From IMG/VR virus record IMGVR_UViG_3300027859_000009, positions 16,535 through 80,534 of that record: a stretch of DNA of 64,000 bases. One strand, given 5' to 3'. How positions within the stretch are numbered: the stretch's first letter is position 1; the number at the start of each line of letters is the position of its first letter. This DNA comes from a virus. The position numbers and the translations under genes are program-made. The notes under the pieces were generated by a model that saw only the letters and a program-made list of their open reading frames with translations, was not told the origin of the DNA and did not search any database. Below, in pieces: positions 5,896 through 64,000 of the stretch.

Positions 5896-6207
5896 ATGAA
5901 AATATTAGAAACATTCAACCAGTTTATTAATGAATCAGTAAATGTTGATGAATTAATAAAAGGTCTAGAAAAAGAATTCTCTTGGAATCAAGGATCTGCT
6001 AAAGAAATGACAACAAGTCCTGATTTTGCTTTTAGAAGAGGTGCTAAAGATGATAAAAACATTTTTATAACATATAGCGGTATGAAAGGCCAGTCAATTG
6101 CAAAAGATATTAGACAGTTTATCAAAGATTCCGGTGCAAAAGCATTACAAGTTGAAAAAGAAAACGGCGATAACGAGCACTATTACCATATAGAAATTAA
6201 AAGATAA
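5896..6207 (+). CDS. putative internal head protein with capsid-targeting-like N-terminus
   Basis: N-terminus MKILETFNQFINES resembles T4 CTS MKTYQEFIAE. Confidence 0.5.
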   Translation: MKILETFNQFINESVNVDELIKGLEKEFSWNQGSAKEMTTSPDFAFRRGAKDDKNIFITYSGMKGQSIAKDIRQFIKDSGAKALQVEKENGDNEHYYHIEIKR

Positions 6208-8190: not shown

Positions 8191-8559
8191 ATGAAAAAAG
8201 TAAACAATTTTGAAAGTTTTTTAAATGAAGGATTTAGCCAAGCTTACAACACCAGAACGCTAAAAGGTATTACATTTTCGTTACCACCATGGGAGCACGT
8301 AGATGATATGTTTAAAAAAGGAGATGAATTTGAAATAGCCTTTAATCAAAGAGCAGATACTGAAAAAATTTGGAATGACATTAGAAAGGCTCAAAAAGAA
8401 CATAAAGCTGTTAAGGCAATGAATATTGGTTGGATGTCAAATGAATTTCATGATGCTATCATTTCAGTTAAAGATGGAAATTACCCAGGTTTGACATATC
8501 TTTTTAAAGCATTAGATAAACATTATGGTAAATTCGGCGCAGCGATGGGTTGGAGATAA
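8191..8559 (+). CDS. putative internal head protein with capsid-targeting-like N-terminus
   Basis: N-terminus MKKVNNFESFLNEG. Confidence 0.5.
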   Translation: MKKVNNFESFLNEGFSQAYNTRTLKGITFSLPPWEHVDDMFKKGDEFEIAFNQRADTEKIWNDIRKAQKEHKAVKAMNIGWMSNEFHDAIISVKDGNYPGLTYLFKALDKHYGKFGAAMGWR

Positions 8560-12176: not shown

Positions 12177-14060
12177 ATGGATAAACTTATCGACAAGACA
12201 AGCAATTTTGATTTGTTAATAGTAGAGAAGTCCTCATCAATTTTAACAAAATCTGGTGATGACAAAGACTATGTTTTAGAAGGTACTTTTGGAGAGATTG
12301 ATGTTAAGAATAAAAACAACAGAATTTATACAGAAGGAGAATATTTACCACAAATTGAATCATTGCAAAATAAAATTAACTCTTCTAAGTTATTAGGAGA
12401 ATTAGACCATCCTCAGCAATTTGATATATCTTTAAAAAACGTATCGCATATTATTGAAGAATTAAGATATGATAAAGAAAATAAAAAAGTAAAAGGTAAA
12501 ATCAGACTACTTGATACCGACGCAGGAAGACAAGCTAAGGCTTTAGTAGACGCTGGTGTACCTTTACACATTAGCTCTAGGGCAGCAGGTGAAGTATCAG
12601 AAGGAGGTAAAGTAAAAATAAAGCAATTATTTACTTATGACCTCGTTGCAGACCCTGGTTTTCAAAATGCAGAATTAACAAGAGTAAATGAATCTTATGG
12701 ATATTCAAATGACGAAAACTTATTTATTTACGAGTTATTTAAAAGAAAAGAAGAAAATAAAAACCAAAACATAATAGAAAATAAAAACAAAAAAGAAATG
12801 GAAGAATTTGTAAAAACAGATGATTTCAACAACTACACAAAGTATCTTGCTGAGCAGATCAAAGGTTTAAAATCGGTTATTTCTGAATTATCAGAAAAAA
12901 CAAATAATGGTTCGGATGAAACAAATGAAACTATTGAAAATGTAACAGCACATAACGACAGTATTGTTGAACAATTAAACAATTTAACAGAGTACGTTAA
13001 ATATGTTGCAGAAAAAACAGACCAAAACATCTCATACACTGAGCATGTTGCAGAAAAAACAGACCAAAGTATTCAATATGCTGAGTACGTTGCGGAAAAA
13101 GTAGACCAAGGAATCGGATACACTGAACACGTAGCAGAATCTTTAACATCTTTAAAAGAGTATGCAAACTACGTTGCAACATCTTACAACGAAGGTGCTG
13201 AAACAACAGAAAAATTAATAGAGTATGTTGAGTATTTAAGAGGTAATGTACAAAATATCAGTGAATATGCTAATTATATTGCTGAATCTATCAACGAAAA
13301 TCTAGTAATAGAAGGCGATGATGAAACAGCAAAAGAATTCGATGAATCAGATGAAGATAACGAATTAGAAAAAGTAGGAGATAACTCTGGAGAAGCTAAT
13401 AGAGCTGATGGTGGAGCTGGTCAAGAAAAAGAAGATTTAGATAACGATTTAAAAGACGTTACTACACCTGATGAAAAAGAAGAAGCTGATAAAGAAGTTC
13501 CTAAAAATTCAGGAGCAGACGGTGCTGATGACCCGCTAGAATCATATAAAGATGAAATTTCAGGTAAATTAAGTAGTTTACTAGAAAAAGCAGCTACAAA
13601 AGAAAATAAAGACCCTCATTTCTTTAAATTAGTTAGTTCTACAACAGCAGAAAAATATAATAACTTAGATGAAAATTCTAAAACTGCAGCTAGAAAATCA
13701 ATTACTGAATCAGGATTTTTAACAGAATCTCAAATTATCAGAATCATTGAAAACGTTAATGAAGTATCAGGAAACGTTTCAAATGAGCCTTTATTTATTA
13801 CAGCTATGCCGTCTGAATATAAAGATAAATGGAATTCACTTTCAGAATCTAAGAAAAGACAAATTGTTGCACAGTCTAAGACTCGTAAATTAGAAACAGA
13901 ATATCAAGTAAGAAACTTCTGGCAAACTAGAGACCTTAGAGAATTTGCTCCAGTAATGGAAAAAGTAGAAATGATTAACGAAAGTAAAAAAGAAGAACCA
14001 AAATTACCTTATAGTCTAGATGGTGTACAAGAGGCATTATCAAAAAGATTTAATAAGTAA
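12177..14060 (+). CDS. gp21: prohead protease (gp21) fused to scaffold/core (gp22-like)
   Basis: NKNNRIY, GELDHP, VSH, ISSRAAG, YDLVADPGF motifs, then a long acidic helical region. Confidence 0.88.
   Translation: MDKLIDKTSNFDLLIVEKSSSILTKSGDDKDYVLEGTFGEIDVKNKNNRIYTEGEYLPQIESLQNKINSSKLLGELDHPQQFDISLKNVSHIIEELRYDKENKKVKGKIRLLDTDAGRQAKALVDAGVPLHISSRAAGEVSEGGKVKIKQLFTYDLVADPGFQNAELTRVNESYGYSNDENLFIYELFKRKEENKNQNIIENKNKKEMEEFVKTDDFNNYTKYLAEQIKGLKSVISELSEKTNNGSDETNETIENVTAHNDSIVEQLNNLTEYVKYVAEKTDQNISYTEHVAEKTDQSIQYAEYVAEKVDQGIGYTEHVAESLTSLKEYANYVATSYNEGAETTEKLIEYVEYLRGNVQNISEYANYIAESINENLVIEGDDETAKEFDESDEDNELEKVGDNSGEANRADGGAGQEKEDLDNDLKDVTTPDEKEEADKEVPKNSGADGADDPLESYKDEISGKLSSLLEKAATKENKDPHFFKLVSSTTAEKYNNLDENSKTAARKSITESGFLTESQIIRIIENVNEVSGNVSNEPLFITAMPSEYKDKWNSLSESKKRQIVAQSKTRKLETEYQVRNFWQTRDLREFAPVMEKVEMINESKKEEPKLPYSLDGVQEALSKRFNK
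12993..13180 (+). repeat. 42-bp (14-aa) tandem coding repeat in the scaffold region
   Basis: YVKYVAEKTDQNIS / YTEHVAEKTDQSIQ / YAEYVAEKVDQGIG / YTEHVAESLTSLKE. Confidence 0.85.
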
Positions 14061-14447: not shown

Positions 14448-14533
14448 AAACATATTCGACGATTTGGCTAAAGAAGCAGAAAGCCATGTAAATAATGTCG
14501 AAAACTAAAACGCAAAAAAATAAATTTAACAAA

Positions 14534-15946
14534 ATGGCAAATTTAATTAACGAAGCGGAAATTAGAGATACATGGTCACCGATTATTGAATCGGCAACTG
14601 GTATCAAAGACGCTGAAAAATTATCATGGATGTCTGAGTACTGTCACAATCACAAACTTTACGAAGACGCAAACATCATGTCCCTTAACCCAGGAATGAA
14701 CTTAACAGGTATGGGTGCAGTAGCATTCCCATCAAACTTTGACGGTGCAGCTGACGGTTCAGGAGACAAAGCTCCAACTTTACTTCCTTTAGCGATGCAA
14801 GTTGCAGCTCAAACAATCGGATTAGACTTAGTACCAGTTGTACCAATGGCTGGACCTATGGGTCTTTTATCTTACCTAGACTTCGTATACGAAGGAGGTA
14901 CTTTAGGTGCTGGAGCTTCCGGTGCTGATGGTACTGTAGCACCTACATACATCAAATCAGGAGCAACTGCTGCTTCTACTGGTGATACTATCGTAGGTAC
15001 ATCTAGAATTGACGGAAAATCAATCATCAAAATTGGAGCAACAACTGAAGCTGCAGCACCAGTAACTAACACTTACGCTGACGCTGAATTAGTTGCTGCA
15101 TTAGACGACCATATCCCTGGTTTCGTTGGAAATGATGATGGAACTCCATACACTAGAGAAGTTGGTGAATCAACTCCGGACAGAGTTATGGGTCTTTCAT
15201 TGTTCAGTAAATCAGTAGACGCTAGAACTTATCAAGTTGCTGCTGCAGTTACTAGAGAGCAAGTACAAGATTTAAAACAATTCGGTGTAGATGCAGTTGC
15301 TCAAGTAGAGGCTGTATTAACTAACGAGCTTACTCAAACAATCAATGATTTAATTATCAATAACATCGATTCACTTGCTACTGCTAACATGGCAGCTGCT
15401 GGTATCGCTGGAAACTTAAACGTAGCTTTAACTCCTGTTGCATCTGCAGCTGGTGGTGCTACTGAAGGTTCACAACACAGAAAAGTATTAACAGGTATTC
15501 TTGCTGCTGCTAACTTAATTGCTAACAGAGGTAGAAGAGGTGCTGGTAACTTTGCTGTAGTTGGACCACAGGTTGCTACATTAATTCAATCGGTTTCAGG
15601 ATTTGTTCCTAACCCATTCGCTAACACGGCAAACCAATCAGCAGGTGCTATTTATCCTGTAGGTTCTGTTGCTGGTGTACAAGTTTATACTAACCCAAAA
15701 TGGAATTGGTCTTACAATGAAGTATTAGTTGGTAGAAAAGGAGACGGAAACGGACCTGGATTAGTATTCATGCCTTACTTAATGGCAGAATCAGTACAAA
15801 CAATTGCTGAAGGAACTATGGCTCCTAAAGTAGCTGTTAAGTCTAGATTCAGAATCGTTGAAGCTGGTTTCCACCCAGAAACACAATATGCAAAATTTGC
15901 AATTACTGTTGCTGGTGGTGGTACTGATTTAGTAAACATCGCTTAA
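14534..15946 (+). CDS. gp23: major capsid protein (gp23)
   Basis: LVPVVPMAGPMG, EQVQDLK, ELTQTIN, RGRRGAGNF, FMPY, KSRF motifs; strong codon bias; start ATG 14534 (MANLINEAE). Confidence 0.95.
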   Translation: MANLINEAEIRDTWSPIIESATGIKDAEKLSWMSEYCHNHKLYEDANIMSLNPGMNLTGMGAVAFPSNFDGAADGSGDKAPTLLPLAMQVAAQTIGLDLVPVVPMAGPMGLLSYLDFVYEGGTLGAGASGADGTVAPTYIKSGATAASTGDTIVGTSRIDGKSIIKIGATTEAAAPVTNTYADAELVAALDDHIPGFVGNDDGTPYTREVGESTPDRVMGLSLFSKSVDARTYQVAAAVTREQVQDLKQFGVDAVAQVEAVLTNELTQTINDLIINNIDSLATANMAAAGIAGNLNVALTPVASAAGGATEGSQHRKVLTGILAAANLIANRGRRGAGNFAVVGPQVATLIQSVSGFVPNPFANTANQSAGAIYPVGSVAGVQVYTNPKWNWSYNEVLVGRKGDGNGPGLVFMPYLMAESVQTIAEGTMAPKVAVKSRFRIVEAGFHPETQYAKFAITVAGGGTDLVNIA

Positions 15947-16046: not shown

Positions 16047-17072
16047 ATGAAAAGATTTTACCTAAAAGAAAATTTAAAAACATACAGTGAGTTTACATCA
16101 CTTAATGAAGAAATCAATATTGAAAACCAACAAGAAACCTCTATATCAGGTCAAGATATTGAGGGCGATGTCATAACTGGAGATAATCTTTCCGGTGAAA
16201 TTGATACCATCTTAGATAAATTAAAAGAATTAGAAGATGGAATAGAAGAAGAACTTGCGGTTAAATATTTAGGTCTTATAGAAGATAGAGACCTTTTTGA
16301 AGAAGAAGATGGCGCAATGGCCAAAATAAAAGATTTTGTATTTGTAGCACCTAAAGTTACAAAAATGCAGAAAAAAGCTAATAAAATTAGACTTAATAAA
16401 GAGGTCTTAGATATGACTGTACAAAATCCTGAAATAGATGGTAAGAAAAAGAAATCGTTAGAACAAAAAAGAGACGGACTTAAAGACCAACTTAAAGATT
16501 TAGAAAATGCAGTTACCCAATATCAAAAAGATAACGGTGGAAAATATTCTGCTAGAAAACTTGCTAAAACAAAAATTGAAGGTCAATTAGCAGCTATTAA
16601 GAAAAAGACTGGTATGTCAGATGACCCAAAACAGCAAAAGTCATTAGCACAAGATGCTAAAGAACTTGCAGTAAGATACAAAGAAGAAGTTGCAGCAACA
16701 AAAGAAATTGCAGATGCTGATAAGCCTTCACCGGAAGAAGTAGCTAAAGCTAAAGCTGATGAAATCAAAACTCAAAGAAAAGAACTTATCGATAAGAAAG
16801 AGTCTACTGATGATAAAAAAGCACAAGCAACTTTACAAGTAGAAATAGAAACACTTAACGTAAAAATAGCTGCATTAGAGAAAGAAGGTGAAGCAGAAGC
16901 TAAACAAGATTTAAAAGATGCTAAGGCAAAATTAGCAGAAATTGAATCTGGAGGAGCAGAAGCAGAAGCAGGAGCTGAAGGAGAAGCAGGAGCTGAAGGA
17001 GAAGCAGGAGCTAAAGGATATAATGAGTCTGAATTTGATGGTTCTGGTAGAAGTTTACCTATCGCAGAATAG
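16047..17072 (+). CDS. coiled-coil late protein, probable internal head protein
   Basis: LKTYSEFTSLNEE near N-terminus; K/E-rich; EAGAEG repeats; late motif at 16010. Confidence 0.55.
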   Translation: MKRFYLKENLKTYSEFTSLNEEINIENQQETSISGQDIEGDVITGDNLSGEIDTILDKLKELEDGIEEELAVKYLGLIEDRDLFEEEDGAMAKIKDFVFVAPKVTKMQKKANKIRLNKEVLDMTVQNPEIDGKKKKSLEQKRDGLKDQLKDLENAVTQYQKDNGGKYSARKLAKTKIEGQLAAIKKKTGMSDDPKQQKSLAQDAKELAVRYKEEVAATKEIADADKPSPEEVAKAKADEIKTQRKELIDKKESTDDKKAQATLQVEIETLNVKIAALEKEGEAEAKQDLKDAKAKLAEIESGGAEAEAGAEGEAGAEGEAGAKGYNESEFDGSGRSLPIAE

Positions 17073-55312: not shown

Positions 55313-56467
55313 ATGAGAATTAAGCCAATAAACGAATTCATGAACATTTTAGAAGCACAGCAAAATTTAAAGTTGAATGTACCAAAAGATGTTAAAGACC
55401 TTCATAAACTTTTTAAGAAGAATAAAAGGGAATTGTACATTGTTGGAGGAGCTGTTCGAGATGCCCTTCTTGGTCAAAAACCAAAAGACTTTGATTTAGC
55501 AACTGATGCTAAACCGGATGAGGTTGTAAAAATATTAAAATCCGGAGGAATTCCTACAATTGGAGAAGTTGGCCAGCAATTTGGTGTAGTTATTGCAAAA
55601 ACACCAAGTTTTGCAGAAGGAATGGAAATTGCTACATTCAGAGAAGACATTGGAAAGGGTAGAAGACCTGACGCTGTAGAATACTCAACAATAGATAAAG
55701 ATGTTCTTAGAAGAGACCTTACAATTAACGCACTTTTTTACGATATTGAAAGTCAAGAAGTAGTTGACCTAGTAGGAGGAGTTGCAGATATTCAAAGTAA
55801 CACTATTAGAACAGTTGGTAGGGCACAAGAAAGATTTGATGAAGACCCTCTTAGAAAATTAAGAGCATTAAGATTTGCAGGTAGAACAGGAAGTAAACTT
55901 GAAAAAAATACAGCCGAGGCTATTATCAGCGATAACAGTTTAGAAGATATTAGTAGTGAAAGAATTAGAGACGAGTTTAAGAAATCTGTAGAAAGCGCAA
56001 AGTCAGCTAGATTTTACTTAGATATGGTTTCAGAATTTAGTCTTTGGGGAGTAATGTTTCCAGGTTTAGAAATCAATAAAACTTTCTTAGATACTAACAA
56101 TTGGCTTTTACAAATAACACAGTTATTTGGAGATAATCAAGAAGAACTTCTTAAAAAAGAATTAAATAAGATGTCTTTTTCAAATCAAGAAATAGATACA
56201 ATTGTATTCTTTAAAAGATTTTTAGAACTTAAACCAGAAAATGCATTTCAATTAAATAAAGAATGGAAAATTGTAAAACTTGATAAAAAATTACTATTAG
56301 AATTTTCTAAGATAAATAAATTAGATATTAAATTAGTAAAAACATTCCTTAAATATAAACCTTCTACAAACGGAGGCCAAGTTATGAAAGAATTTGGTAT
56401 TAAAGGTTCTGCAATTGGAGATAAAATAAAAGAAATAGAAACCGAAAAATTTAAACAATTATTATGA
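55313..56467 (+). CDS. cca: class II tRNA nucleotidyltransferase (CCA-adding / poly(A) polymerase family)
   Basis: VGGAVRD.LLG..PKDFDLAT, EIATFR, RRDLTINAL, RFDEDPLR.LR.LRF, SSERI..E. Confidence 0.9.
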   Translation: MRIKPINEFMNILEAQQNLKLNVPKDVKDLHKLFKKNKRELYIVGGAVRDALLGQKPKDFDLATDAKPDEVVKILKSGGIPTIGEVGQQFGVVIAKTPSFAEGMEIATFREDIGKGRRPDAVEYSTIDKDVLRRDLTINALFYDIESQEVVDLVGGVADIQSNTIRTVGRAQERFDEDPLRKLRALRFAGRTGSKLEKNTAEAIISDNSLEDISSERIRDEFKKSVESAKSARFYLDMVSEFSLWGVMFPGLEINKTFLDTNNWLLQITQLFGDNQEELLKKELNKMSFSNQEIDTIVFFKRFLELKPENAFQLNKEWKIVKLDKKLLLEFSKINKLDIKLVKTFLKYKPSTNGGQVMKEFGIKGSAIGDKIKEIETEKFKQLL

Positions 56468-60041: not shown

Positions 60042-60191
60042 ATGTTTAAAAACAAAAGAATATCAGAAGTGATGCCGCATCTAGAATCAGTTGCTAGAGA
60101 CCACGGTCTCAAGTTAAATTACACTAAAGATTTTAAAATAGCAAGAAAACTTTTACTAATTAGATATTTGTCTTATGGGAATTTTAAATAG
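60042..60191 (+). CDS. small basic protein (49 aa)
   Basis: Hand-translated MFKNKRISEV...YGNFK. Confidence 0.5.
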   Translation: MFKNKRISEVMPHLESVARDHGLKLNYTKDFKIARKLLLIRYLSYGNFK

Positions 60192-60654
60192 AATAAACCT
60201 TTTCCTTACATTTTTATACATTCCACTTTTTCCAATTGGAGAAAACTTTAAATCTTCAGTTGTTGTTGAAAAAGAGGAAAAGAAAATAGAAGTAGTAGAG
60301 GTAGTAGAAGAATCAAATCTTTTAGAAGCAATGATTCAAGTAGAAAGCAGAGGAAATGAATCTGCAGTTGGAGACACTCACATGGACGTTCCATCAATTG
60401 GGGTTTTACAAATTAGACCTATCATGGTTAAGGAAGTAAATAGAATTCTTGGAAAGGAAGTTTATACTTTAAAAGACCGAGCTAGCCGTGAAAAATCAAT
60501 TGAAATGTTCGAAGTATGGAAAAATCACCACCATAAAAATTCAAGTGATGAAAAAATAGCGAGATGTTGGAACGGAGGGCCTTTAGGTTATAAATATAGT
60601 GGGACAGATCATTATTGGTCAAAAGTTCAATTGGAGATGCAAGTTAGTAGGTAG
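60175..60654 (+). CDS. lysozyme-like / lytic transglycosylase with N-terminal anchor
   Basis: AMIQVESRG...A.GD...G.LQI, AR.WNGGP, YW..V. Confidence 0.8.
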   Translation: MGILNRINLFLTFLYIPLFPIGENFKSSVVVEKEEKKIEVVEVVEESNLLEAMIQVESRGNESAVGDTHMDVPSIGVLQIRPIMVKEVNRILGKEVYTLKDRASREKSIEMFEVWKNHHHKNSSDEKIARCWNGGPLGYKYSGTDHYWSKVQLEMQVSR

Positions 60655-60729: not shown

Positions 60730-62523
60730 ATGAGTAGAGTTTTAACATCAGAAGCATTCATGCTTGTAAACGGTTTAGATATTCAACATTCAAGTGAATG
60801 GGAAGATTATTTAGAAATGAACGCGCAGATAAATGGTTTAACAAGAGAAGAATATGCAGCATACTATTTAAACACGCAATGGCAAATGCAGTGTATGGAA
60901 AGTATTGTTACTTTATTTGAAGCTAAAAAAGTTACAAGAAAGCAATTAGATAAGGCTCTTGGTGAAATTACAAGAATTACTCAAGATTTAAAGTCAACTG
61001 TCCTTTTATGGAAAGATGCTAAAGAAAATGGAAATGGTGCTAAAGAAAAAGAACATTTAGATACTTTAAAGAAATTAAATGCTGAGAAAAAAGAAGCAGA
61101 GAAAGAAGTAGAAGGGTTTATTAAAGGACTTGATAAGAATGTAGAATTAAGCATTACAGAAGCCATCGAAGTTACCAAAGAAATGTGGGACAAGGAATGG
61201 CCACTTAAAAAAGTATTTGGAAAAGACTACGAGGCTAATTTCGCAAAAAGAGTAGAAGCAGCAATGTCAAAAGCCAAAAACGAAGAACAGGCTGAAGAAT
61301 GGGCTTATAAAAACTTTAAACAATTACCAAACCCTGCAAAAGGGATGACTATAGAAGAATCAGTTATGAATGAATATGGCCCAATGCGAGGTTCTGGTAA
61401 TAGAGATTATAGTACTAGTGAACTTGTTGATAGAGCTGGCGAACTAGATGATATTTTTCAAGATTCTAGAAATCGTAGAGCTATTAGAGATTGGGAAGAA
61501 TATACTGAAGACCTATTTGGTGAATATGCAGGAGACCAAGACGGTGGAACACAAGATGTATATTGGGCAGATATTCCAGAACATGAACTTCAAACAGCAA
61601 TCGATGTTGGCGAGGATATTATGAATAAGTATAAGATTAAAGAATCAGTTATGAATGAAGCAAAAGGCGCACCATGGCCAGAACAATTAGAAAAAGGGTT
61701 AACTCATTGGGGTTACAAAAAAGGAACCCATACTAGAGAACTTAAAACACTTCCTTGTAGAATTGGAAGAAATGCACAAGAATTTGGTGGACCTAACCAT
61801 GCCCAATCAGTTGTAGACCTTAATATGAAAGACCCAATGGTCAAGAAATTCTTTAAGCCTAAATTTAAAGTTAGAGCAGATGGAAATTACGTAAATGATT
61901 ATGTTGAACTAATTCCTAAAAAGGGTTATTTATATAGTCTACATGTAGGTACTGGACAATTTGAATATTTTTGTTTAGCAATTAAACCAGGAGAGGTTTA
62001 CATATTTAGAAAATATGACGAAGCCTATGGACAATATGAATATTTCAAATTCGAAGAGAATATGTCAACAAGATCTGGAGTATTTGATTTTAAAAGACAT
62101 AGAGAAGAAGAACAATGGAAATGGAATAAATTAAAACCAGACGGTGCAAGTCATTTCGTATCAGTTGGATGGGGAATCATGGATATTGGTTTAGAATATA
62201 CTCAATTAGAATTACCATTTGAACATCTAAAAACTTACGAAAGTTTTGTTACTGAAAAAAAAAACTTATCTAGTTCAATTAAAGCAGCATTAAAAAATGG
62301 TTTAGTTAATGTTGGAGGAGACAAGGTTAAAGTTTCTGTTACTAATAAAAACCAATATAAAATCCAACCATACGACTCTCTTGTTGGCGGTGATTGGGCA
62401 GAGGCAGATCTACGAGATAATTTCAAAGACTTGGTTGATGACCTTAATTTTTCTTTAAAAGGCAAATATTCATTTTCACCAATCGATGTTACTAATAAAG
62501 AATGGATAATAGAATTACTCTAA
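60730..62523 (+). CDS. modular late protein; putative polyprotein of internal head proteins
   Basis: Late motif at 60699; internal LFE-A, ITE-A, ESVMNE (x2) and HLKTYESFVTE linkers. Confidence 0.55.
   Translation: MSRVLTSEAFMLVNGLDIQHSSEWEDYLEMNAQINGLTREEYAAYYLNTQWQMQCMESIVTLFEAKKVTRKQLDKALGEITRITQDLKSTVLLWKDAKENGNGAKEKEHLDTLKKLNAEKKEAEKEVEGFIKGLDKNVELSITEAIEVTKEMWDKEWPLKKVFGKDYEANFAKRVEAAMSKAKNEEQAEEWAYKNFKQLPNPAKGMTIEESVMNEYGPMRGSGNRDYSTSELVDRAGELDDIFQDSRNRRAIRDWEEYTEDLFGEYAGDQDGGTQDVYWADIPEHELQTAIDVGEDIMNKYKIKESVMNEAKGAPWPEQLEKGLTHWGYKKGTHTRELKTLPCRIGRNAQEFGGPNHAQSVVDLNMKDPMVKKFFKPKFKVRADGNYVNDYVELIPKKGYLYSLHVGTGQFEYFCLAIKPGEVYIFRKYDEAYGQYEYFKFEENMSTRSGVFDFKRHREEEQWKWNKLKPDGASHFVSVGWGIMDIGLEYTQLELPFEHLKTYESFVTEKKNLSSSIKAALKNGLVNVGGDKVKVSVTNKNQYKIQPYDSLVGGDWAEADLRDNFKDLVDDLNFSLKGKYSFSPIDVTNKEWIIELL
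61355..61659 (+). repeat. 20-bp exact direct repeat AAGAATCAGTTATGAATGAA, 285 bp apart
   Basis: Copies at 61355-61374 and 61640-61659, both in frame as ESVMNE. Confidence 0.85.
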
Positions 62524-63474: not shown

Positions 63475-64000
63475 GTGAGTAAACTTTTAGACCAATACAC
63501 AGCATTAGATTCTCAAGCTTTTGCAGATAATATCCACAGAGAAGCAAATGGATATTGGAAACCAATATATCCAGGAGAATTAAATAGACCTCTTAAGCAT
63601 GTAGAGGCAGATTACAATTATAAAGTTCTTACAGGAACTTTAGCAAATTATAGAATTTATCCATCTGCAATTTTACCAGGAACAACAGGTGCTGCAGTAG
63701 AAGATTTTACTGGAGATGATAATAAAGTACTGCAATTAAAGTATGATGCAACTGAAGGTTGGTATTGGACTCTTCTTTTGGGTGGTTCGGGAACTACTGG
63801 TCCTGCTGGTCCTACCGGTGCTGCTGGTCCTACCGGTGCTGCTGGTCCTACCGGTGCTGCTGGTCCTACCGGTACAAATGGTGCAACAGGTCCTGCTGGT
63901 CCTACTGGTGTCAGCGGAACTCCTTATGCGAATAGTAAAACAGAAACTTACACTTCAGCAAACATACTTGCAGGCGACAAAATTAATCTTTTAAACAGTT
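63475..64000 (+). CDS. collagen-repeat (Gly-X-Y) fibre/structural protein, runs off the window
   Basis: GTG start [10 protein letters not shown]...; [43 protein letters not shown]; absent from the ORF track because it has no stop in the window. Confidence 0.8.

Follow-up and report, generated by a model that had tools for sequence, protein, structure and literature searches.

How does a phage come to carry one gene in which unrelated small modules are strung together, each set off from the next by nearly the same short peptide ending in glutamate, and what would such a chain do? The question is raised by P0001, a polyprotein gene in a 64,000-nucleotide stretch of viral DNA (positions 16,535 to 80,534 of IMG/VR virus record IMGVR_UViG_3300027859_000009), which we call the window and whose numbering is used below. 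This window belongs to a viral contig of 80.5 kb (31% G+C, an estimated 28% of the genome), which comes from a giant marine phage that is related to T4 and uncultured. A first-pass annotation, made from the letters alone, read the product as packaged whole, cut by the protease encoded at 12177 into several separately ejected effectors, and subject to module exchange by recombination at linker-coding repeats. We put at roughly 0.6 the probability that P0001 is a polyprotein of capsid-targeted cargo that would be cut within the prohead, its linkers doubling as recombination joints. That P0001 is targeted and packaged, cut, kept in the head, ejected and active in the host is what we infer by analogy with known phages.

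Modules and linkers of P0001

The open reading frame (ORF) is genuine; its homologues, collinear or mosaic, are present on independent contigs, and the five motifs that had been picked out by eye (TLFE, SITE, IEESVMNE, IKESVMNE and HLKTYESFVTE) all lie where they were reported. Judged by sequence, P0001 is a chain of five unrelated small modules, the N-module and modules B to E, with short peptides between them (Table 1; a slash marks the bond after a linker's final Glu). Four of the five motifs do separate blocks, SITE in a degenerate form; the fifth, TLFE (residues 61-64, followed by A), sits within the conserved N-module and is not a joint between exchangeable blocks. In its L-F-E site, 78 of 78 relatives have L or I at P3 and E at P1, with P2 variable (A, T, F, Y, L, D or S). 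SITE/A aligns to ...SESVNE/G in the closest relatives and reads as a decayed copy of the canonical joint. The N-module is always N-terminal, is found in 80 family proteins, and begins with a leader-like peptide that has no final Glu (MSRVLTSEAFMLVNG). Module B occurs at varied positions in 45 proteins, including a second protein family with other N-termini. Module D is rare, with 8 representative clusters among 1.8 billion proteins, and module E is likewise rare in the protein database search. In P0042, an 801-residue protein from a 4.4-kb ENA contig, a ClpA/B-like AAA+ protein carries a C-terminal piece of module D that is 81% identical (query residues 354-455); this may be a chimeric assembly or a genuine fusion.

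Across 121 relatives the joints obey one rule, E-S-(F/V/I)-(V/I/M/L)-(N/T)-E or the shorter E-S-V-N-E, and the following residue is mostly A, K or G. In its strict form, ES-Φ-(Φ)-[NT]-E (Φ, hydrophobic), the motif occurs 259 times in the 121 family proteins, compared with 1.1 copies expected from shuffles. P0001 itself holds three copies where 0.012 are expected, a number reached in 0 of 5000 residue shuffles, and these three (IEESVMNE, IKESVMNE and HLKTYESFVTE) are all copies of a single family-wide linker. The generic pattern [ILVM]-x-E occurs at 11 sites among the 64 Glu of P0001, and we place weight on the extended motif only. A position-specific scoring matrix (PSSM) built from the relatives' linkers, with P0001 left out, matches only coding-strand ORFs in this genome and in that of G002, a relative of 205 kb (75% complete) whose capsid protein is 80% identical; in this genome the matches are three internal copies and two ORF starts. 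Because the two linkers that flank one module differ at synonymous sites in relatives L002-L004, selection acts on the peptide of the linker and not on its DNA.

Structure prediction, which the first-pass annotation had recommended as a check for independent domains, gave a model in which low-confidence segments fall exactly at the linkers, between the folded modules. The AF2 model of the full chain has a mean predicted local distance difference test score (pLDDT) of 59, falling below 50 at residues 134-252, 301-317 and 493-509. In the N-module it predicts helices at 70-99 and 103-136 (pLDDT 61-84 over residues 71-130). Module D is modelled as alpha/beta, with 10-residue blocks at pLDDT 61-92 over 331-460, mostly at least 70, and module E as small alpha/beta, with blocks at 73-89. 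When D and E were modelled alone, the mean was 70.5, D was again confident, and the linker region (493-515) again fell below 50.

Searches for known families and folds were negative. P0001 had no match in Pfam, PHROGs or NCBIfam, and Pfam found no domain in eight long relatives. The ESM Atlas gave no usable feature match, and its own model was poor (pLDDT 0.46). Foldseek gave no match at E ≤ 0.001, either with the full model against PDB and BFVD or with the D+E model against PDB and VIA-wide; the best fold-search Z was 6.4, for module E only and inside the background, and a profile search of PDB sequences returned coiled-coil noise only.

Module exchange at the linkers, and N-terminal leaders

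A comparison covering 123 relatives shows that modules are gained, lost or swapped exactly at the linkers. In proteins with an N-module identity of 91% or more, three states occur between the ESVMNE copies: no module, module C (P0001 only) or an unrelated module of ~58 residues. Four close relatives carry an additional module of ~98 residues at the SITE joint. Module C is missing from all eight proteins with an N-module at least 91% identical, and is 80-89% identical in 10 other proteins of different architecture. In P0011 and P0012, identity is 47-51% in the N-module and 85-89% in modules B, C and D. Of the homology breakpoints, 27% are no more than 3 residues away from the end of a linker, compared with 4.9% for random positions. 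The polyprotein gene occupies a fixed syntenic slot whose neighbours are 80-95% identical in L004, and its own content is mosaic. These cassette insertions and deletions, breakpoints and discordant module identities bear out the exchange of modules that the first-pass annotation had proposed, and orthologues are mosaic rather than collinear over their full length. A rough count gives 61 distinct cut-pattern architectures among the 121 proteins. When modules were counted by cutting the proteins at linkers and grouping the pieces by single linkage, they collapsed to one large cluster because some linkers are missed, and the resulting family count was not used.

The exact direct repeat that had been noted around the 95-codon block is also confirmed: the 20-bp sequence AAGAATCAGTTATGAATGAA lies at 61355-61374, in the linker IEESVMNE, and at 61640-61659, in the linker IKESVMNE, with the copies 285 bp (95 codons) apart, and it is the longest repeat in the gene. 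In G002 a module of 104 residues is flanked by an exact repeat of 43 bp.

The same peptide also stands at the beginning of other genes. In this genome, in G002 and in database homologues, the linker reads as the 11-14-residue leader of free-standing small genes. The pattern [FY]xx[FL]Φ[NTA]E occurs five times in the 80.5-kb contig and nowhere on its minus strand; in four copies the final Glu is residue 11-13 of an ORF product (starts at genome positions 7127 and 13172 and at window positions 5896 and 8191), and the fifth is residues 499-509 of P0001. In P0088-P0093, the cargo that the free-standing gene at genome position 7127 encodes recurs as an internal module. Five ORFs of G002 open with the leader, for example MKTIKTFESFVNE/ directly after the G002 polyprotein; one of the five is itself an 820-residue polyprotein starting MATFEEFLNE/, and two more G002 polyproteins (681 and 690 residues) carry the leader internally. 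Three of the five modules of P0001 occur behind leaders as well: module E is free-standing in the 124-residue P0121, behind MKKLVNTFNEFVNE/; module B comes first behind MKLHSFTQFINE/ in P0115, a 78-residue fragment ending within module B; and module D follows ...NHIMLFEEFVNE/ in P0096. In P0096 and P0097 module D is preceded by MKDFKPHMMYDPKTGKAYKAEKPEDHERMQKLGYVH, a type of peptide that also occurs in other marine phage proteins. The ORF at genome position C1:13172, which lies 3362 bases before the window start and encodes 419 residues, begins MILNYGEFLNE/K and has a second copy, FTQFLNE/D, ~27 residues on; it may be another leader-bearing or multi-linker protein.

Many internal linkers retain an initiator Met at the first position of the leader (MKNLETLESFINE, MKKLQTLESFVNE), which points to fusion and fission of leader-bearing genes. 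The same methionines could instead mark start sites from which the modules are translated separately, the long ORF being an incidental read-through of fused genes. We regard this as highly improbable: none of the three strict linkers of P0001 has Met at that position, no promoter-like motif lies inside the gene, and dozens of independent contigs maintain long open frames, with as many as eight linkers.

The prohead protease, its candidate sites and probable late expression

The head module genes of the window stand in T4 order, with a portal (Portal_T4), a small acidic protein, the protease and a Gp23-family capsid protein identified by Pfam and PHROG. The capsid protein is 51% identical to that of LR756500 (462 kb, an uncultured huge phage) and 41% identical to those of Lak megaphages, and the head genes are closer to T4, Lak and LR756500 than to phiKZ-type giant phages. 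The first ~165 residues of the 12177 protease match Peptidase_S77, the gp21 family (E = 1.4e-10, above the curated cut-off), and the protein also matches phrog_207 and aligns with the T4 gp21 structure 5jbl. Six [YH][VI]AE sites lie in its tail, which terminates in ...VEMINE/S here and in MVTE/K in G002, and protease plus tail looks like a gp21-gp22 (protease-scaffold) fusion. The tail (12900-14060) is ~400 residues with an 11-residue periodic repeat (...YVAEKTDQNISYTEHVAEKTDQ...) rich in the [YH][VI]AE sites.

The N-terminal peptide of the capsid protein is kept in relatives down to 51% identity (MANLINE/AEIR in G002 and G003, MIKLINE/AEIM in LR756500). The capsid ORF has two in-frame Met codons (14495-14554); relatives retain the second only, so the true start is probably 14534, which would give a propeptide of 7 residues compared with 65 in T4. 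In Lak phage the capsid N-terminus reads ESYVNR/A, from which we draw no interpretation.

The connection of P0001 to this protease and to a T4-type targeting peptide, which was part of the first proposal, is well supported at the level of comparison, through the Peptidase_S77 assignment, the identity of linker and leader, and the likeness to T4 gp21 sites. The T4 capsid-targeting sequence (CTS) is MKTYQEFIAE (PMC8442874), in which residues 4 and 7 are the main determinants of targeting, and residues 8 and 10 those of processing (PMC9026906). KTYESFVTE of P0001 is identical to it at K2, T3, Y4, F7 and E10 and has V for I8, so that all targeting and processing positions are matched; the free-standing leaders show the same pattern. 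In the T4 record AF158101, gp23 is cut at ...GSFLTE/AEIGG and gp22 contains ...LNFVTE/A, and the SFVTE/ linker shares P4-P1 residues with these sites (SFLTE/A in gp23, NFVTE/A in gp22). Each of the P0001 sites is hydrophobic-x-Glu (M-N-E, M-N-E, V-T-E, I-T-E and L-F-E), and the linkers lie within segments of pLDDT below 50. The strict leader copies of P0001 are internal (208-215, 303-310, 499-509), and the copy at its N-terminus has no final Glu.

That missing Glu is one reason to consider that P0001 could be targeted without being cut apart. The leader-like peptides would then be repeated docking helices for the scaffold core, and the product would remain one multi-domain chain or be trimmed at one or two sites. 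In T4, targeting can be uncoupled from processing, with Asp at CTS position 10 preventing cutting yet leaving targeting intact (PMC9026906), and the AF2 model places short helices (208-211, 305-307 and 497-507) inside or overlapping three linkers. However, the final Glu of the linker is invariant in 187 distinct instances, collected with a pattern that itself demanded that Glu, and the next residue is small or Lys, as at protease sites. The same peptide stands at the extreme N-terminus of free-standing genes, where a T4-type leader gets removed, and cutting does occur at the T4 sites that share its P4-P1 residues. We therefore consider an uncut, targeted chain unlikely.

A promoter-like motif, (A)AGATATATAA, occurs at 18 sites compared with 9.3 expected, all on the plus strand between 6981 and 62569. 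It lies 4-47 nt upstream of numerous gene starts, among them those of the prohead-core-like gene, the protease, the capsid gene, the tail tube gene (30841), a 1450-residue ORF (33011) and a tRNA nucleotidyltransferase gene (55313), and it also precedes P0001 (Table 1). Because of the genes downstream of it, we take the motif to be probably the late promoter of this phage lineage; sharing it supports co-expression with virion genes, and no more. The T4 late promoter TATAAATA was also considered; it is not positioned before the P0001 gene and is barely enriched (24 matches compared with 15 expected). The tRNA nucleotidyltransferase (55313-56467; phrog_2244, E = 2e-57) starts with the leader-like MRIKPINEFMNILE/A; a CCA-adding enzyme would be unusual as a packaged protein.

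Some of these observations would also suit a modular protein of the cytoplasm that is not virion cargo at all, with linkers that are the site of another protease, an interaction motif, or recombination joints kept by gene conversion. No module has structural-protein homology in Pfam, PHROG or NCBIfam; the gene has accessory genes around it and is 46 kb away from the head genes; some genes behind the promoter-like motif, such as the tRNA nucleotidyltransferase gene, are not necessarily structural; and exact DNA repeats are present. Against this, the linker is kept as a peptide despite synonymous differences, it resembles the sites of the sole protease family known to be present as well as the start of the capsid protein, and its bias to ORF N-termini fits a removable leader, not a recombination scar. 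On balance, a non-virion role for P0001 is improbable.

Table 1. Features of P0001 and of genes discussed with it (window coordinates)
Feature	Position	Strand	Remarks
Polyprotein gene P0001	60730..62523	+	597 aa, ~69 kDa, no internal stop
N-module	60730..61161	+	residues 1-144
L-F-E site in N-module	60913..60921	+	residues 62-64, T4-type [LI]-x-E
SITE/A joint, degenerate linker	61150..61161	+	residues 141-144
Module B	61162..61374	+	residues 145-215
Linker IEESVMNE/Y	61351..61374	+	residues 208-215; PSSM 32 bits (matrix built without P0001)
Module C, 95-codon cassette	61375..61659	+	residues 216-310
Linker IKESVMNE/A	61636..61659	+	residues 303-310
Module D, predicted alpha/beta domain	61660..62256	+	residues 311-509
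Linker HLKTYESFVTE/K, full internal leader copy	62224..62256	+	residues 499-509
Module E, predicted small alpha/beta domain	62257..62520	+	residues 510-597
Promoter-like motif AAGATATATAA	60697..60707	+	23 nt upstream of P0001 start codon
Free-standing 103-aa gene	5896..6207	+	leader MKILETFNQFINE/S
Free-standing 122-aa gene	8191..8559	+	leader MKKVNNFESFLNE/G
Prohead protease, gp21 type, fused to long scaffold-like tail	12177..14060	+	627 aa
Major capsid protein, Gp23 family (Pfam)	14495..15946	+	N-terminal MANLINE/AEIR; LINE at 14543-14554
Coiled-coil, highly charged protein 3' of capsid gene; scaffold or core candidate	16047..17072	+	N-terminal peptide ...LKTYSEFTSLNE/E

Two further genes lie close to the polyprotein gene. 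The one directly 5' of it (60175-60654) encodes a protein with a hydrophobic N-terminus that is 88% conserved in L004 and has a weak, sub-threshold match to SLT lytic transglycosylase (E = 7e-4). The ORF at 63475-63999 continues beyond the end of the window; it contains (GPTGAA)n repeats of collagen-like type and has matches among the tail-fibre PHROG families.

A proposed route into the head and its relation to known systems

In the reading that we prefer, each module is preceded by a peptide of consensus ...(T/I)(L/Y/K)-E-S-(F/V)-(I/V/M)-(N/T)-E, which would be this lineage's counterpart of the T4 CTS combined with a site for a gp21-type prohead protease. The chain would be produced late, alongside the head proteins, and would be pulled into the core of the assembling prohead via the N-module, the leader-like peptides or both. 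The 12177 protease would then cut every linker behind its last Glu, and probably the chain after LFE-64 as well, releasing five or six proteins of ~8-23 kDa (predicted products of 7.6, 9.0, 8.3, 11.0, 23.4 and 9.8 kDa, pI 4.2-8.9) that would be retained in the head and, by analogy to T4 internal proteins, enter the host with the DNA. With every module flanked by one and the same peptide, in some cases also by identical DNA, homologous recombination at linkers would insert, delete and swap modules, and the locus would act as a cassette site.

Several points weigh against this proposal. The modules are not uniformly basic, unlike T4 internal proteins. After cleavage every module but the last would retain the next leader as a C-terminal tail, an arrangement for which we know of no counterpart in T4. 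The leader-like peptide at the N-terminus of P0001 would stay uncut because its final Glu is missing. Another protease may exist, as the contig holds only ~28% of the genome. The LINE/AEI peptide (capsid residue 20) was rejected as the aligned equivalent of the T4 gp23 cut, since the alignment maps the T4 site near residue 67; its resemblance to the gp23 site is one of analogy. Finally, blastn and tblastn against 50,697 phage records, T4 included, gave no match, and no cultured phage among them has these modules.

The closest known parallel is with the internal proteins of T4 (IPI, IPII and IPIII) and with Alt, whose CTS is cut by gp21. Both systems have a short leader with aromatics at the targeting positions and a Φ-x-E cut site, a gp21-family protease within a T4-type head module, and a hypervariable locus at which a conserved leader precedes cargo that is unrelated and changes fast (PMC9026906, PMC3012670, PMC8442874). 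T4, however, uses separate genes with one N-terminal leader each, whereas here a single ORF holds five modules (up to nine in relatives) and repeats the leader internally, in a form of 11-14 residues ending in N/T-E. The cargo has no sequence homology to T4 internal proteins or Alt in Pfam, PHROG, NCBIfam or tblastn searches. Multiple cuts in one chain are made by gp21 during maturation of T4 gp23, gp22, gp67 and gp68 (PMC5694885); the multiply cut T4 proteins are scaffold whose peptides are discarded, whereas the pieces of P0001 are predicted folded domains that would presumably be retained.

Inner-body and ejection proteins of phiKZ, 201phi2-1 and SPN3US also reside inside the head, where a gp21-related protease cuts many such proteins after Glu; a targeting role is presumed for their propeptides, and N-termini are conserved among paralogues (PMC5694885, PMC9026906). 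Unlike P0001, they have one long propeptide and one mature part per gene and the motif (S/A/G)-x-E, and no chains of exchangeable modules are reported for them. Polyvalent proteins (Iyer et al. 2017, PMC5512222) likewise combine many unrelated domains in one chain, are extensively reshuffled among relatives and are delivered with the invading DNA, with domain release by proteolysis proposed. They are, however, defined by known effector domains, and release is ascribed to an embedded metallopeptidase, whereas the joints of P0001 mimic prohead-protease sites; Pfam and fold searches found in P0001 none of the effector domains or the embedded peptidase of polyvalent proteins, though very divergent domains could escape them. 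In the literature on T4 internal proteins, giant-phage ejection proteins and polyvalent proteins, we found no description of a chained leader-cargo polyprotein.

A broader interpretation, which we offer tentatively and hold to be possible rather than probable, is that the linker is a dual-purpose plug, its peptide serving as prohead address and cut mark and its DNA as recombination joint, so that any ORF placed between two linkers would become injected cargo. These phages would then carry a combinatorial and rapidly rearranged injected arsenal, plausibly for counter-defence, in the form of polyproteins, a gene organisation not described for tailed phages.

If the cargo reading of P0001 is true, tailed phages would have a polyprotein strategy that brings several small proteins into the capsid from one gene. 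The T4 internal-protein paradigm of one leader and one cargo would extend to a cassette system, which would account for the recruitment and exchange of unrelated cargo. With the leader there would be a candidate tag to bring foreign proteins into the capsids of non-coli phages, and the sequence rule, a leader or linker ending in Φ-Φ-N/T-E, would predict the injected proteome of uncultured giant phages, whose modules without known fold or family would form a pool of candidate host-takeover or anti-defence proteins.

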